A stretch of DNA of 52,129 nt from a virus (lineage: Duplodnaviria > Caudoviricetes), in IMG/VR virus record IMGVR_UViG_3300020469_000065, positions 1 through 52,129 of that record, one strand, 5' to 3'. The notes under the pieces were generated by a model. It was not told the origin of the DNA, did not search any database, and saw nothing but the letters and a program-made list of their open reading frames with translations. Every line of letters starts with the position of its first letter. Position 1 is the first letter of the stretch. Shown one piece after another: positions 14,212 through 21,817 of the stretch. The position numbers and the translations under genes were made by a program.

Positions 14212-15399
14212 ATGGCTTATAATGTCCTAAAAGGCAACGTACAATTTATTAACTCTGATAGTGGTTCTATCGAGAGTATGGTTGATGACCACAGTAATCA
14301 GACAATTGCAGGAGTAAAAACATTTTCATCTCCAATTACTGCTAGTGCTTTTTTTAATTCTAGCGGCGGTGGGTCTCCAATTGTATCTTCTCCAATCAAC
14401 TCACTCTTTGGTTCTGGTGAAGATAGGGTTGCAATATTTAGTGGTTCAAACGACCTTACAGCAAGCACAGGACTGACTTATGATAGCATAGTTTTGGCAG
14501 TTACAGGAAATGTCTCTGCTTCACTAAACATATCAGGATCAGGTTTTTATGGCTCTGGCGTTGGGTTGACGAACTTGCCAGCCACAAGCTTAAACGGTCA
14601 GGTCGCTGCTGCAAATATAAACCTTGGAAACGGGTTAACAAACGTAGGTGGCGCAGTTACTGTTTCTGGTTCTGACACAAGCATTACAATTGCAGCGAAT
14701 GGAATCTCCATAAATGGTGCCGGTAACACCAGTGGTTTGAGAGTTGGTGGTAGTGGTTTAAGAGTAGATCCGAACCGAGGTACTAATAAAGCTTCACTAT
14801 CATCAACCGACGAAATTTTGATTTCTGATAGTGATGATTCTAATAATCTTAAAAAATCAAGTTTTAGCAGCCTACAGACATATATGCAAGAAAATTTAAA
14901 TTTTGGTGGAGCAGCGGGCTCAAACACTCAAATTCAATTTAATAGTTCTGGAGACTTTGCTGGCGACAACACATTTACATTTAATAACACAAGTAAAGTT
15001 GTTGCTGTAACTGGACTTAGTGCGTCATCGAATGTTTCAGCCTCTGCTTTTTATGGTAATGGAGCCAATTTAACTGGCTTAGCTACTAATGTTTATAATA
15101 GTTTTACAGCCAATTACACTGTGGCTACAACTCATGATTTAATGGGTATTGTCACAACTGGCTCAGCGATAACAGCCTCTTTAGCAGCAGCTAGTAGTTA
15201 TGGTTCTGGTCAAAGATTTACTTTTAAAGATGTGAGCGGAAGCTGTTCTGGGTCAAATCACATCGTAATTAGCGCCAGTTCACACCACACAGGTGATAGG
15301 ATTGATGGGCAAGGCATTGTAAAAATACAAGCTGGTTATGGTGCTATAACAATCGCATCTGATGGTGTAAATAGTTTTTATATAGTGAGTACAAGTTAA
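14212..15399 (+). CDS. Fibre/decoration-like protein, paralog 4
   Basis: MAYNVL start like 10827; GSNTQIQFN; C-terminal FKDVSG...IDG...SDGVNSFYIV. Confidence 0.7.
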   Translation: MAYNVLKGNVQFINSDSGSIESMVDDHSNQTIAGVKTFSSPITASAFFNSSGGGSPIVSSPINSLFGSGEDRVAIFSGSNDLTASTGLTYDSIVLAVTGNVSASLNISGSGFYGSGVGLTNLPATSLNGQVAAANINLGNGLTNVGGAVTVSGSDTSITIAANGISINGAGNTSGLRVGGSGLRVDPNRGTNKASLSSTDEILISDSDDSNNLKKSSFSSLQTYMQENLNFGGAAGSNTQIQFNSSGDFAGDNTFTFNNTSKVVAVTGLSASSNVSASAFYGNGANLTGLATNVYNSFTANYTVATTHDLMGIVTTGSAITASLAAASSYGSGQRFTFKDVSGSCSGSNHIVISASSHHTGDRIDGQGIVKIQAGYGAITIASDGVNSFYIVSTS

Positions 15400-17594: not shown

Positions 17595-19454
17595 ATGTCT
17601 AGTATTGTTGAAAGATTGACCGAAGGCGTTGTCAATCGTGATATGCGTGCGGAGTCCCACGCACTTCTTTCCAAGTGGAAGAAGACCGGACTTCTAGAGG
17701 GCATTGAGACCGAGCGTAAGCAGAACTCAATGGCTCGCCTACTTGAAAACCAAGCCAAGGAGCTTCTCCGTGAGCAGACTACCCTAGGTGCAGGTTCCGT
17801 TGAAGGCTTCGCTGCTGTTGCTTTCCCAATCGTTCGCCGCGTTTTCGCTGGTCTTATCGCCAACGACCTCGTTAGCGTTCAGCCAATGAGCCTCCCCAGT
17901 GGTCTCATTTTCTTCCTTGACTTCACCTTCTCTAGTGATGCAGGTGGTAGTTCTGGTCTATTCCCACGTATGGGTAACGCATCTGGCGATTCCGTCTACG
18001 GTACCGACAAGGTTGGTGCTGGCGTCATTGATGGCGTGAGTTTGGTTAACGCAACTACCAAGGCTGCTGCTGGTAGTGGTCCACTTCGTGATGGTGGCAC
18101 TGGCTATGCTTACGCATCCCCAAGTGGCTCCCAAACCGATGCTGGTGGTGGTGTCGGTATTGCAACCGCAAACGCATCATATACCTCATTCACTTTGGAT
18201 GGCGCGGTAAGTGCGGCAAACCAGAAGCGCGTTCAGTTTGATCCAGATATTTTGTCTGTAACTGATAGCTCCCTCAGTGTTATCGTCTGTGATATCAAGA
18301 AGGCTAACGTCACAAGTGCTGATGGTGATCCCGATTTTGATAACCTTTCACCATTCCAGCTTGCTACCGCTAACCTCAACGCAGGTGGTGCCGGTGGTGC
18401 ATTCGCCGACGCGCTTGGTGGTGTTACAAGTGTAAAGCAGATTCGTCGTTTGACCGATAAGGTTGCGGCGGCAGACGCTTTGACCTCCGCAGAGTCTATT
18501 AGACTTGTCCTTACAGTTGCCTCTGGTGATTATACGTCAGATCAAGCTGCTGCTGCAATTGATAACACAATTAACGCTGCCGATCTTACTTTCCCAATCG
18601 CTGATAGGCTTGTAGCCTCTTCAACTCTCGGTGCTGTTGGTGGCGCACTTAACTTGTTCCCTCTTGAAGCAGAGACCGACATTCCTGAGATCGACATCAA
18701 GGTTGATTCAACCGCGATTACCGCTCAGACTAAGAAGCTCAAGGCTAAGTGGACCCCAGAGCTTGGTCAGGACCTTAATGCATACCACAACTTGGATGCA
18801 GAGGTTGAGCTTACCTCAATTCTCTCCGAGCAGATTGCTCTTGAGATTGACCGTGAGATCCTTGCTGACCTTGTAAACGGTGCTACCGCAGCTACCTACT
18901 ACTGGTCCCGCTCCCCAGGTCTCTTCGTCAACCGCGAGACTGGTGTTGAACTAGGCGCATCTTCTGCTGCTCCTGACTTCACCGGCACTGTCTCCGAGTG
19001 GTATGAAACCCTCGTTGAAACCATCAACGATGTCTCCGCACAGATTCACCGCAAGACTCTCCGTGGTGGTGCTAACTTCGTCGTCTGCGGACCCGAAGTT
19101 GCGAACATCCTTGAGTTCACCGCTGGCTTCCGTGCAAGTGTCACTCACGACGACGAGAAGGGTTCCATCGGCGCCCTCCGCGTTGGTTCACTAAGCAAGA
19201 AGTTTGATATCATTGTTGATCCTTACTTCCCACGTCAGGTGCTCCTCGTTGGTCGTCGTGGAGCTTCTTTCCTTGAAAGCGGTTATGTCTACGCACCTTA
19301 CGTGCCACTACAGACTACTCCCACAATCTTCGGACCAGAAGACTTCGTGCCACGCAAGGGTGTTATGACCCGCTACGCGAAGAAGATGGTTCGTCCAGAT
19401 ATGTATGGACTAGTCATCTGCCGTGGTTTACTCGGTGAAGAAGGCTCTAGCTGA
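17595..19454 (+). CDS. Major capsid protein (T4 gp23-like)
   Basis: AFPIVRRVF..L.A.DLVSVQPMSLPSGLIF, KKLKAKWTPE..QDLNAYH.LDAE.EL, EIDREI, GYVYAPYVPL, GVMTRYA. Confidence 0.95.
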   Translation: MSSIVERLTEGVVNRDMRAESHALLSKWKKTGLLEGIETERKQNSMARLLENQAKELLREQTTLGAGSVEGFAAVAFPIVRRVFAGLIANDLVSVQPMSLPSGLIFFLDFTFSSDAGGSSGLFPRMGNASGDSVYGTDKVGAGVIDGVSLVNATTKAAAGSGPLRDGGTGYAYASPSGSQTDAGGGVGIATANASYTSFTLDGAVSAANQKRVQFDPDILSVTDSSLSVIVCDIKKANVTSADGDPDFDNLSPFQLATANLNAGGAGGAFADALGGVTSVKQIRRLTDKVAAADALTSAESIRLVLTVASGDYTSDQAAAAIDNTINAADLTFPIADRLVASSTLGAVGGALNLFPLEAETDIPEIDIKVDSTAITAQTKKLKAKWTPELGQDLNAYHNLDAEVELTSILSEQIALEIDREILADLVNGATAATYYWSRSPGLFVNRETGVELGASSAAPDFTGTVSEWYETLVETINDVSAQIHRKTLRGGANFVVCGPEVANILEFTAGFRASVTHDDEKGSIGALRVGSLSKKFDIIVDPYFPRQVLLVGRRGASFLESGYVYAPYVPLQTTPTIFGPEDFVPRKGVMTRYAKKMVRPDMYGLVICRGLLGEEGSS

Positions 19455-19474
19455 TAGTTAAATATCACTAAACC

Positions 19475-19502
19475 AAGCCCCCTACTTCGGTAGGGGGTTT
19501 TT
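19475..19502 (+). terminator. Intrinsic terminator after capsid gene
   Basis: GCCCCCTAC-TTCG-GTAGGGGGT followed by a T-run. Confidence 0.85.
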
Positions 19503-19514
19503 GCTTTTAGAGAT

Positions 19515-19522
19515 ACTATTTA
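19515..19522 (+). promoter_or_regulatory. ACTATTTA putative late promoter element
   Basis: Follows the terminator and precedes the structured leader. Confidence 0.7.
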
Positions 19523-19526
19523 CAAC

Positions 19527-19618
19527 AACTTGAAATATTCTCCTCTGGGCGAGGCCACTGCCCTTAGAAAGTTTTGATTCCGAAGTGGCTGGAATTAATT
19601 CACTGAATAAAACAAGTT
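19527..19618 (+). ncRNA. Candidate structured RNA: three-way junction with two complementary 9-nt loops
   Basis: Closing stem AACTTG/CAAGTT plus TATTC/GAATA; hairpin GGGC-GAGGCCACT-GCCC; hairpin TTGATTCC-GAAGTGGCT-GGAATTAA; loops pair GGCCACT/AGTGGCT. Confidence 0.6.
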
Positions 19619-19652
19619 ATTGCAATAATATAATCATAAAGGAGAAAATATT

Positions 19653-20237
19653 ATGGGAAATAGAAGATTAGGAGCAAGACGCTTAGACGCCCTACTCCGT
19701 AGAGGAACAACCGGCAGAGATACATCTTATCAGGCTGGTGCAAGTATTTCACCTGCTGTTGTATCACACAGAATGTACAACGAAGGTGTTTTCGTTATCA
19801 CTGAGATCGTTTTAGATCTTGGAACAAGCGCGGCTGACATTAGATCATCTGCTGTTGATAAGCCTATCGGCACTCACAGTGCAACTACGGGCGCTCAGCT
19901 TATGCAGTGGGAAAATGACATTCACGGAAAGTGGATTTCAGGAGAAGTTTTTTGTGCAGAGGCGCTTACCGACGTAACCGCAGTCTCTTTAGCTGCTGGC
20001 ACCGCTGTTGAGGCAATTGGTGATACTATTGCTGATAGACAGGACATTGTTGCTGCTGTTGCCAGTAACAATGTTGGTGGCAACGGAGCTACTGCTGCTG
20101 GCGGAATGTCAACTCCTCTTGGTGATGGACACTACGTGTATTTGACTCCCGATAACAATGGTACCACTACTTATGATGCTGGTCAATTGGTTGTTCGCCT
20201 CATTGGCGTTAAAGCAGCAGACGTAAGCACTGACTGA
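19653..20237 (+). CDS. Hypothetical virion (possible capsid decoration) protein
   Basis: AAGGAG RBS; follows capsid gene. Confidence 0.7.
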   Translation: MGNRRLGARRLDALLRRGTTGRDTSYQAGASISPAVVSHRMYNEGVFVITEIVLDLGTSAADIRSSAVDKPIGTHSATTGAQLMQWENDIHGKWISGEVFCAEALTDVTAVSLAAGTAVEAIGDTIADRQDIVAAVASNNVGGNGATAAGGMSTPLGDGHYVYLTPDNNGTTTYDAGQLVVRLIGVKAADVSTD

Positions 20238-20261
20238 TTTTATTCACAATAAGGAAATAAC

Positions 20262-20447
20262 ATGATTAGATCATCTAGAATAAACACGAAAGAAGACGAA
20301 GCAAAGAGAGAGGCACCTGCCAAGGCACCTGCAAAGGCTCCCGCAAAGGCACCTGCAAAGGCTCCCGCAAAGGCACCTGCAAAGAAGAAGGCACCAGCCA
20401 AACCCCGCGCAAAAACTCCCGCAAAGAAGACTGCTAAGTCCGAGTAA
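20262..20447 (+). CDS. Small Lys/Ala/Pro-rich histone-H1-like protein
   Basis: AAGGA RBS; (APAK)6 followed by KKAPAKPRAKTPAKK. Confidence 0.65.
   Translation: MIRSSRINTKEDEAKREAPAKAPAKAPAKAPAKAPAKAPAKKKAPAKPRAKTPAKKTAKSE
20313..20384 (+). repeat. 12-bp tandem repeat x6 (GCWCCYGCMAAG) encoding APAK
   Basis: Directly visible tandem units. Confidence 0.9.
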
Positions 20448-20465: not shown

Positions 20466-20500
20466 GCCCCCTCATCTAACAAGGTGAGGGGGCTTTTGTT
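20466..20500 (+). terminator. Intrinsic terminator
   Basis: GCCCCCTCATCT-AACA-AGGTGAGGGGGC then TTTTGTT. Confidence 0.8.
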
Positions 20501-20509
20501 TATTCTTTC

Positions 20510-20517
20510 ACTATTTA
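20510..20517 (+). promoter_or_regulatory. ACTATTTA putative late promoter element
   Basis: After terminator, before the AGGAGG RBS of 20540. Confidence 0.7.
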
Positions 20518-20539: not shown

Positions 20540-21817
20540 ATGCCCACAAACTTACAACCACTTTCAGAAACTAGTGCTATCATTCTTTCCTCAACCGGAT
20601 CTACCGGTGATGTAGCAGCAGCAGTGCCATTTGGAATGTACAATGGCTCTGACGAATTTATAACTGGTGCTGCAAGGCAAGTAAATTATGTATTCAAGAA
20701 GCTGGGCGGTGATGTTGTAGATATTGAATTGACAAATAACAATGTCTATTCTGCTTATGAAGAGGCAGTTCTGGAATACTCATATATTCTTAACATGCAC
20801 CAGGGAAAAAATGTCCTCTCCGATACGCTTGGTAAACTTACAGGCACCTTTGATCACAAAGGTGAGATTGTTAGTGGTCCTGCTAGCGCGAGTTTACAAT
20901 ACCCAAGAGTGACGCTCTCTTATGCCAATAAGATTGGCGATGGCGTTTCTACTATGGCAGGCGTTGGTGGAACAACTCGCATTTATTCTGCATCCTTTAC
21001 GACTGTTAAAAATCAACAAGATTATGACCTTCAATCTATTGTATCAGCAGCGTCTGACTCGGGGCTTGATGATGCAGGCGGTGCAGTTCCATACGCAGGA
21101 AAAATTGGTGATTCACGTATTATCATAGATAAAGTTTTTTATCGCTCCCCAATCGCCATGTGGCGCTTCTATGGCTACTATGGTGGCATGGGAGTTGTTG
21201 GTAATTATTCTACTTATGGTCAGTACGCTGATGACTCAACATTTGAAATTGTTCCCACTTGGCAAAACAAACTGCAAGCCATAATGTATGAAGATTCTCT
21301 CTACACAAGAGTCTCACATTATTCTTATGAAATTATTAACAATAGATTAAGACTGTATCCAAAGCCTAGAGGAGAAGATGGCTTTGCCGGCTATCTTGAT
21401 AGAGTTTGGTTTAGATTCAGAATTGCTGATAACTCATGGGGAGAAGACGACGGCACCAATACCGGAGTTCTTGGCGTTAATAACATTAACACGCTTCCAT
21501 TTGATAATATTCCATACGAGAACATTAACTCTATGGGCAAGCAATGGATTCGCAACTATGCTCTCGCACTTTGTAAAGAAATGCTTGGACAGATTCGCGG
21601 TAAGTTCCAAACTGTCCCAATCCCAGGTGAATCCGTCACCCTAAACTATTCTTCGCTTCTCTCCGAGGCTCAAAAAGAAAAAGATGATCTTCGCCAGGGG
21701 CTGACAGATATGCTGAAAGAGATTGAATACCCAGAATTGGCAAAGAAAGACCAAGAGAAGGTCACGGCAGCAGAAGAAACTCTTCGTCGCTCTCCGCTAC
21801 CAATCTTTGTAGGATAA
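20540..21817 (+). CDS. Neck/head-tail adaptor protein (T4 gp13-like)
   Basis: KKLGGDVVDIEL, WIRNYALALCKEMLGQIRGKF..PIPG..VTLN, C-terminal PLPIFVG; position after capsid. Confidence 0.8.
   Translation: MPTNLQPLSETSAIILSSTGSTGDVAAAVPFGMYNGSDEFITGAARQVNYVFKKLGGDVVDIELTNNNVYSAYEEAVLEYSYILNMHQGKNVLSDTLGKLTGTFDHKGEIVSGPASASLQYPRVTLSYANKIGDGVSTMAGVGGTTRIYSASFTTVKNQQDYDLQSIVSAASDSGLDDAGGAVPYAGKIGDSRIIIDKVFYRSPIAMWRFYGYYGGMGVVGNYSTYGQYADDSTFEIVPTWQNKLQAIMYEDSLYTRVSHYSYEIINNRLRLYPKPRGEDGFAGYLDRVWFRFRIADNSWGEDDGTNTGVLGVNNINTLPFDNIPYENINSMGKQWIRNYALALCKEMLGQIRGKFQTVPIPGESVTLNYSSLLSEAQKEKDDLRQGLTDMLKEIEYPELAKKDQEKVTAAEETLRRSPLPIFVG

Follow-up and report, generated by a model that had tools for sequence, protein, structure and literature searches.

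A covarying three-way-junction RNA with kissing loops, a candidate translational leader for a probable capsid cement protein of uncultured marine gp23-type phages

Sequence comparison establishes, downstream of the capsid gene of an uncultured marine phage, a + strand RNA made up of the helices P1a, P1b, P2 and P3 and a set of kissing pairs, at the positions given in Table 1. The element is about 90 bases in size with two hairpin loops, and it is a new, uncatalogued RNA family of an already known general kind, of which viral contigs supply at least 76 distinct members; the clade carrying it is one of uncultured marine gp23-type phages. We propose, with a probability of roughly 0.55, that it is a two-fold translational leader setting the yield of a probable cement protein encoded directly behind it. 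The element combines seven standard loop-loop pairs, formed most simply within one junction, with an apparent built-in switch based on a stretch complementary to the Shine-Dalgarno sequence (anti-SD and SD respectively). If this switch is real, a DNA phage would control through RNA how much of a capsid-accessory protein it makes, by means of either an MS2-like folding timer or an effector. The element also lends itself to probing, to riboswitch screens and to service as a compact regulatory part.

The window analysed here is the whole 52,129-nt stretch of a 52-kb IMG/VR viral contig, for which completeness is estimated at 29%. The phage gene set includes a gp23-type capsid protein, a T4-type large terminase, a portal and a tail sheath. 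The first-pass annotation had called the phage T4-like, which holds for the gp23-type capsid but is a loose label, as the nearest isolate by capsid protein, Flavobacterium phage immuto, is only 47% identical, followed by Microcystis phage Mel-JY01 and Rhodothermus phage RM378. The Pfam Gp23 match on the capsid protein covers residues 307-604 only, and the ~300 residues N-terminal to it match no family except through a weak PHROG hit at residues 30-102.

The same annotation had predicted, from the letters of the post-capsid spacer, a closing stem around two hairpins with complementary loops, and an exact check on the window found every stretch that it named in its place (Table 1).

Table 1. Positions on the window of the leader element, the flanking genes and signals, and the ACTATTTA sites.
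Feature	Positions	Strand	Remark or basis
Capsid protein gene	17595-19454	+	619 aa
Intrinsic-terminator-like hairpin ending the capsid gene unit	19475-19500	+	11 pairs, then T run
ACTATTTA promoter-like motif	19515-19522	+	Enrichment and conservation
P1a 5' strand, AACUUG	19527-19532	+	Pairs with 19613-19618; 98.9% of cells paired (76 sequences)
P1b 5' strand, UAUUC	19536-19540	+	Partner 19605-19609; anchor-based count
Anti-SD stretch, UUCUCCU (J1/2 and end of P1b)	19538-19544	+	Complementary to SD at 19640-19646
Hairpin P2, GGGC[GAGGCCACT]GCCC, 9-nt loop L2	19547-19563	+	98.4% paired
L2 bases of kissing helix, GGCCACU	19553-19559	+	Partner in L3, 19584-19590; 97-99.7% paired
J2/3, purine-rich UUAGAAAGUU	19564-19573	+	3' end may lengthen P3
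Hairpin P3 (8 bp), TTGATTCC[GAAGTGGCT]GGAATTAA, 9-nt loop L3 GAAGUGGCU	19574-19598	+	94.1% paired
P1b 3' strand, GAAUA	19605-19609	+	Anchor-based count
P1a 3' strand, CAAGUU	19613-19618	+	Covariation alignment, 76 sequences
P4 palindromic hairpin	19616-19629	+	5' arm GUU overlaps P1a 3' strand
SD region, AGGAGAA	19640-19646	+	Window sequence and relatives
194-aa ORF, starts MGNRRLG...	19653-20237	+	Arg-rich N-terminal helix and jelly-roll (model)
61-aa ORF, KAPA-repeat-rich	20262-20447	+	L082 counterpart 77% identical
Terminator-like hairpin closing the unit	20466-20493	+	Next ACTATTTA at 20510
ACTATTTA sites, + strand	1233, 1254, 7345, 9652, 11833, 14172, 16374, 19515, 20510, 23223, 24687, 41606, 50132	+	
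ACTATTTA site, minus strand	15368-15375	-	

Relatives were collected from viral contigs by protein searches, from which 80 loci were kept for the capsid protein and 11 for the 194-aa protein. The spacer is 71-94% identical as DNA (15 loci), as compared with 56-72% for the capsid proteins. A covariance model, R1, built from 16 sequences including the window, matched 23 of 92 sources, namely the window (152.6 bits, though it is itself among the sequences used to build the model), 11 of the 80 capsid loci and all 11 downstream-protein loci; nine further weak R1 rows are short leaders that share just the motif and the SD. A pattern scan fixing part of J1/2, P2 and L2 gave 35 model hits among the 79 loci listed, and one fixing only GCTGG and the P4 core, blind to the anti-SD, gave 44 among the 75 loci listed. 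After removal of loci from contigs that were already represented and of one 5'-cut locus, 91 hits in viral contigs yielded 76 distinct sequences. Loci on the same contigs as included ones (L095, L105, L106, L108, L111, L112, L113, L159, L326 and L352) and L341, which is cut at its 5' end, were left out of alignment A5. A more degenerate pattern scan returned, among the 80 matches listed, L100 as the sole previously known element locus. Of the matches listed in pattern scans of other contigs, three of 80 from metagenomes and none of 80 from genomes fit the model, the latter being no census of cellular genomes. Searching the phage collection with the DNA of 19000-20300 gave no match, and parts of the element were not seen by eye in the short post-capsid spacers of Flavobacterium phage immuto and Microcystis phage Mel-JY01.

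The fold is maintained by compensatory changes. With 16 relatives aligned by plain MAFFT, 93.0% of the cells pair, as compared with 30-49% when the partners are slid; the proportion is 95.2% for 43 distinct sequences and 94.6% for the 76, against 31-52% with slid partners. Within the set of 76, changes on both sides of a pair occur in 221 cells versus 67 +/- 6 in shuffles, and none of 500 shuffles, which ignore relatedness, matched the covariation score. Fitting to the model makes alignments A3 and A5 lean towards the structure, and most A5 loci were fetched by patterns that fix some bases. RNAalifold, unaided, predicted P1a, P2 and P3. Both-side changes are present in seven of the eight P3 pairs, the third pair of P2 is variously GC (54), UA (11), AU (5), GU (3), UG (2) or CG (1), and P1a changes through A-U/G-U/G-C and U-A/U-G series in the 76 sequences. 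The kissing helix, which in the window has six Watson-Crick pairs and one G-U, covaries as CG 64/GC 12 and AU 58/GC 15; its three 'other' cells come from the misaligned L084 class and are C-G when read by eye. The three-way junction, the two hairpins and the loop-loop pairing of the original prediction are thus each accompanied by compensatory changes in the sets of 16, 43 and 76 sequences.

P1b is the weaker helix, with 81% of cells paired in the model alignment. When counted from anchors, all five pairs are present in 44 of the 76 sequences and four in most of the others, with a central U-U or U-C in 20 sequences having four pairs. Its 3' strand varies as GRRUA, which is wobble-tolerant, and there is full compensation in L084, L002 and L052 (UGGUC/GACCA type). 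In a segment table of the relatives J2/3 is conserved as (U)UAGAAA or UUGAA, and P3 reaches 10-11 bp in many of them through a GA.../...UC extension. We draw no claim about additional tertiary pairs from an all-against-all covariation scan, in which a one-column alignment shift and clade structure acted as confounders.

The single sequence by itself does not establish the fold, and the comparative evidence is decisive. Positions 19515-19652 fold with z = -1.54, equalled by 13 of 200 shuffles, and the minimum-energy fold is an alternative SD-closing cloverleaf, not the three-way junction, which becomes the minimum-energy fold (-28.1 kcal/mol) when the transcript is begun at 19527. The minus strand of 19515-19652 has a folding z of -4.05, and this score arises from a 13-bp extension that, among 16 aligned sequences, the window shares with its closest relative, L082, alone. 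Across the helix alignment there are 275 G-U/U-G cells and 23 A-C/C-A cells, from which we conclude that the conserved structure is an RNA of the + strand and not a DNA palindrome. A minus-strand RNA and a DNA cruciform were both rejected on these grounds.

The element lies behind an octamer, ACTATTTA, that is likely to be a promoter motif of the phage's own, perhaps a late one, judging from its distribution. The window contains 14 copies where 2.15 would be expected; 13 are on the + strand, most are situated 20-76 nt ahead of a start codon and several come directly after terminators, in keeping with the promoter role given to it at the outset. In all 76 distinct relatives it is kept 3-7 nt upstream of P1a, and a GC-rich hairpin with a T run was recognised by eye within the 45 nt upstream of it in 38 of 43. 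The variants ACTAATTA and ACTACTTA are found in relatives. The 138-nt leader is the longest in the window, with no sigma-70 promoter on the + strand within it and no terminator between the fold and the 194-aa ORF.

Contigs from RNA libraries, which show neither starts nor strands, bear on the extent of the transcript. In one sample they extend over the capsid gene as far as 19455/6 and resume over 19529-20351, placing the element and the 194-aa ORF on one piece, and a second study has a piece at 19636-19861. The contig start at 19529, inside P1a, is a weak hint as to the 5' end; none of the contigs spans 19456-19529, the ends at 20351/20375 lie within the KAPA DNA repeat, and coverage gaps of this kind are not evidence. 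A regulatory leader for the gene at 19653, one of two functions initially suggested, fits both this piece and the order of terminator, motif, fold, SD and ORF. Between the 194-aa gene and the closing terminator lies the 61-aa KAPA ORF, a candidate gene with a weak SD, whose product is lysine-rich and basic.

For the 194-aa protein, whose N-terminus is MGNRRLGARRLDALLRRG, there are 70 marine homologues, all unnamed; it belongs to no Pfam or PHROG family, and one protein search with it gave no match. In its structural model (pLDDT 84.6) residues 7-17 form a helix apart from the jelly-roll, which follows it. Foldseek against the PDB returned nothing at E <= 0.001, and structure matches in BFVD are to uncharacterised phage proteins only. 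Phage capsid or cement chains take the top three places in VIA-align: the cyanophage Pam1 capsid unit (7eel_H; Z 8.0, rmsd 3.3, 114 aligned residues), the Ralstonia phage GP4 capsid (8h89_J; Z 8.0, rmsd 4.0, 138 aligned residues) and the trimeric cement protein of Helicobacter phage KHP40 (7dou_4; Z 7.9, rmsd 3.2, 112 aligned residues). From the modelled fold and the gene position it is probably a capsid cement or decoration protein, with the caution that Z values near 8 are common for such folds. An ORF beginning M(G/A/S)...RR, with an SD and a start codon, follows the element in all 43 distinct sequences, and in the relatives GGAG ends 6-10 nt upstream of the ATG.

The features that suggest a switch lie at the two edges of the junction. 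CUCC is kept in 75 of the 76 distinct sequences, including loci from the pattern that does not require it, and all of 43 sequences are predicted to form a UUCUCCU/AGGAGAA duplex, at -8.5 to -11.7 kcal/mol. Each strand hardly varies, so that this pairing is without usable covariation, and we infer it from complementarity; the few variants are mixed, with C-G in L085 and L086 and C-A in L334 and L339. Conservation of CUCC could alternatively reflect a tertiary fold of the junction, and a ligand pocket, too, would be compatible with the strong conservation of the junction bases. The first anti-SD bases belong to P1b, and the junction and the anti-SD:SD helix are therefore mutually exclusive. A similar conflict involves P4, whose 5' arm overlaps the 3' strand of P1a in all four P4 versions; GUU(A) is common to both, so that P4 excludes P1a. 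The P4 core is TTATTGCAATAA in 33 of 43 distinct sequences, and the three further versions, AAGTTATCGATAACTT, GGTTAACGTTAACC and GGTTACGTAACC, are all perfect palindromes. L075 has a P4 with one G-U, and P4 is absent from L084, L002 and L052, showing that it is not essential.

The two folds were compared in 43 sequences. Subtracting the energy of the SD-free fold from that of the SD-hidden one gives -0.58 +/- 2.4 kcal/mol, in a calculation that had no shuffled control and ignored the kissing helix, and the minimum-energy fold contains the anti-SD:SD pairing in 20 sequences, P1a in 18 and neither in five. When growing transcripts of the window were folded as prefixes, the junction had the lowest energy for 3' ends between 19620 and 19644, as soon as P1a was whole, and the alternative emerged only at 19650, with the SD transcribed. 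Even in the SD-free fold of the window, the loop of a weak AU hairpin contains the SD.

These observations lead us to the following model, in which we infer the switch and its timing. A short late message, composed of the leader, the 194-aa ORF and the 61-aa KAPA ORF, would start a few bases after ACTATTTA, at P1a. In a first fold (A), P1a and P1b would close P2 and P3, whose loops kiss, with UUCUCCU partly locked in P1b and the SD free. In a second (B), P1 would open, the 3' strand of P1a would pass into P4, and UUCUCCU would pair with AGGAGAA in a long-distance helix closing a P2/P3/P4 cloverleaf and hiding the ribosome-binding site. Fold A would form first because P1 is complete ~25 nt before the SD is transcribed; it would allow a burst of translation, and later refolding to fold B would cap the yield per message. 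Alternatively, a ligand or a protein would act as the trigger by shifting the balance between the two folds.

There are precedents for translational control of this general type. The T4 late genes for lysozyme (e) and soc have simple SD-hiding hairpins with a promoter-dependent effect. As in the proposed leader, structure in the message of a late or virion gene of a T4-type phage gates ribosome binding, whereas the element is wholly downstream of its promoter motif and far more elaborate. A closer parallel is the MS2/Levivirus maturation (A-protein) leader, in which the SD is bound by an upstream complement, with a cloverleaf between the two, and a metastable hairpin retards this pairing (PMC4615214). 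The likeness of the proposed leader consists of long-distance SD pairing that closes a cloverleaf of hairpins, an earlier local structure that holds the anti-SD and so permits brief translation, and control of a virion protein (PMC4615214). In the phage leader, too, the two complementary stretches enclose several hairpins, and it may work like that of MS2. The two are not homologues, however; this is a DNA phage, the MS2 leader has no kissing loops, and the early structure here would be a whole three-way junction.

Of the rival explanations, a true riboswitch, in which a junction preorganised by the kissing loops binds a small molecule or ion, stabilises P1 and opens (or closes) the SD, is possible though on balance improbable. 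The junction has the appropriate parts, with P1 closing two loop-docked hairpins, conserved junction strands (UCCUYU, UAGAAA/UUGAA and AUU/GU), an expression platform containing an anti-SD and a competing hairpin, and two near-isoenergetic folds. The regulated gene, however, encodes a virion protein and not a metabolic or transport function, and suggests no ligand. The first-pass annotation had likened the RNA to purine riboswitches and to phi29 prohead RNA, a comparison that survives for the architecture but not at the level of family, as no Rfam model matches. With the purine riboswitch RF00167, in its translational adenine type, the element shares a P1 with two loop-docked hairpins, conserved junction strands and a platform acting on the SD, and the covariation supports a P1-P2-P3 junction with L2-L3 docking in architecture only. 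It differs in having 9-nt loops with seven standard pairs, unlike the purine class, a P2 of 4-5 bp, a P3 of 8-11 bp, other junction sequences and a structural gene downstream, and the RF00167 profile gives no row at E <= 10 on the window or at E <= 1 on the relatives. Long kissing-loop contacts within one RNA occur in the lysine riboswitch (L2-L3) and elsewhere. These resemble the element in their loop-loop helix of ~6-7 standard pairs between two arms of one junction, but junction order, size and sequence differ and there is no Rfam match.

More broadly, Rfam 15 contains no family matching either the leader region of the window or the loci of the five relatives compared with it. At E <= 10 window positions 19300-19800 gave only terminator-driven chance rows (10.6-20.2 bits against gathering thresholds of 47-440), none spanning the P2-P3 core, and the loci of five relatives (29,721 bases) gave no matches at E <= 1, riboswitch models included. 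A hammerhead or other ribozyme was rejected, there being no such row. We found no description of the motif in the literature.

A protein-binding operator is a doubtful alternative. Here a phage protein would repress translation, the candidate being unassembled 194-aa product acting through its Arg-rich helix; such translational feedback is known for some phage proteins. The position of the predicted helix within an N-terminus beginning MGNRRLGARRLDALLRRG is suitable, and this N-terminus recurs in the products of the genes that the element precedes. Homologues that lack the element are also basic N-terminally (MGTKRVGLAR...), however, so the arm is more likely to serve in capsid binding.

The symmetry of P4 invites a more speculative reading. 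P4 is self-complementary through its centre in four versions with differing stem lengths, and a hairpin loop needs no such symmetry. Half-sites spaced by 2, 4 or 6 bp argue against a site for a dimeric DNA-binding protein, and the G-U variant in L075 argues for a role at the RNA level; a duplex of two message copies would explain the palindrome. The leader might then sense its own concentration, with L2-L3 kissing in trans and P4 dimerising messages and locking the SD-hidden fold, or it might represent a new riboswitch class whose junction reads a host metabolite. We hold this pair of ideas only tentatively and think them unlikely. If the first were true, message dimerisation would shut off translation of the cement protein as late messages accumulate, and if the second, a host metabolite would time capsid decoration.

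That the element is a static 5' structure, protecting the message or enhancing translation with no switching, appears quite unlikely. P1a is at or near the predicted 5' end, and the fold is compact and GC-rich within an AT-rich genome (GC of the element hits is 0.31-0.46), but a protective stem needs no covarying kissing loops, conserved junction strands, invariant anti-SD or hairpin competing with P1.

The phi29 prohead RNA (Phage_pRNA) is a separate RNA on the portal of phi29-like phages, and its loops pair between molecules. The element is likewise a phage three-way-junction RNA with two complementary, co-evolving loops, but it is part of a message in a phage with a T4-type terminase, and it matches no pRNA model. 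As a T4-type large terminase packages the DNA, the pRNA-like assembly RNA also suggested initially is left with no evident role, and a standalone RNA like that of phi29 is unlikely. A trans-acting RNA that multimerises through intermolecular L2-L3 pairing and serves in assembly is very improbable in general, for although the covariation fits intra- and intermolecular loop pairing alike and the perfect P4 palindromes are needed by a two-copy duplex and not by a hairpin, no terminator separates fold and ORF, the RNA-library contig runs from one into the other, the phage has its T4-type large terminase and portal, no Rfam pRNA model matches, and an SD and start codon always lie downstream of the element in the 43 distinct sequences.

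The slot after the capsid gene is variable in loci of capsid relatives (for example L008, L010, L017, L062 and L076). In many the small gene is absent and a 425-aa gene (MPTNL...; window 20540-21817) directly follows the capsid gene; in others a different small gene (MAKVGR... or MSKSGRYSADRKK...) occupies the slot. Sister lineages (L058:4904-4975, L037:1852-1924, L016:3057-3132 and L023:5323-5398) have a shorter leader of ~70 nt after the same promoter-like motif, with a different hairpin, ahead of homologues starting MGTKRVG(L/W)AR; elsewhere the gene is missing. Their leader forms a 7-bp hairpin, one pair of which is compensated; the 5' arm and loop of this hairpin contain the SD-like sequence GGAGAAA, and a conserved GTTAATTGACCTAAT comes after it.
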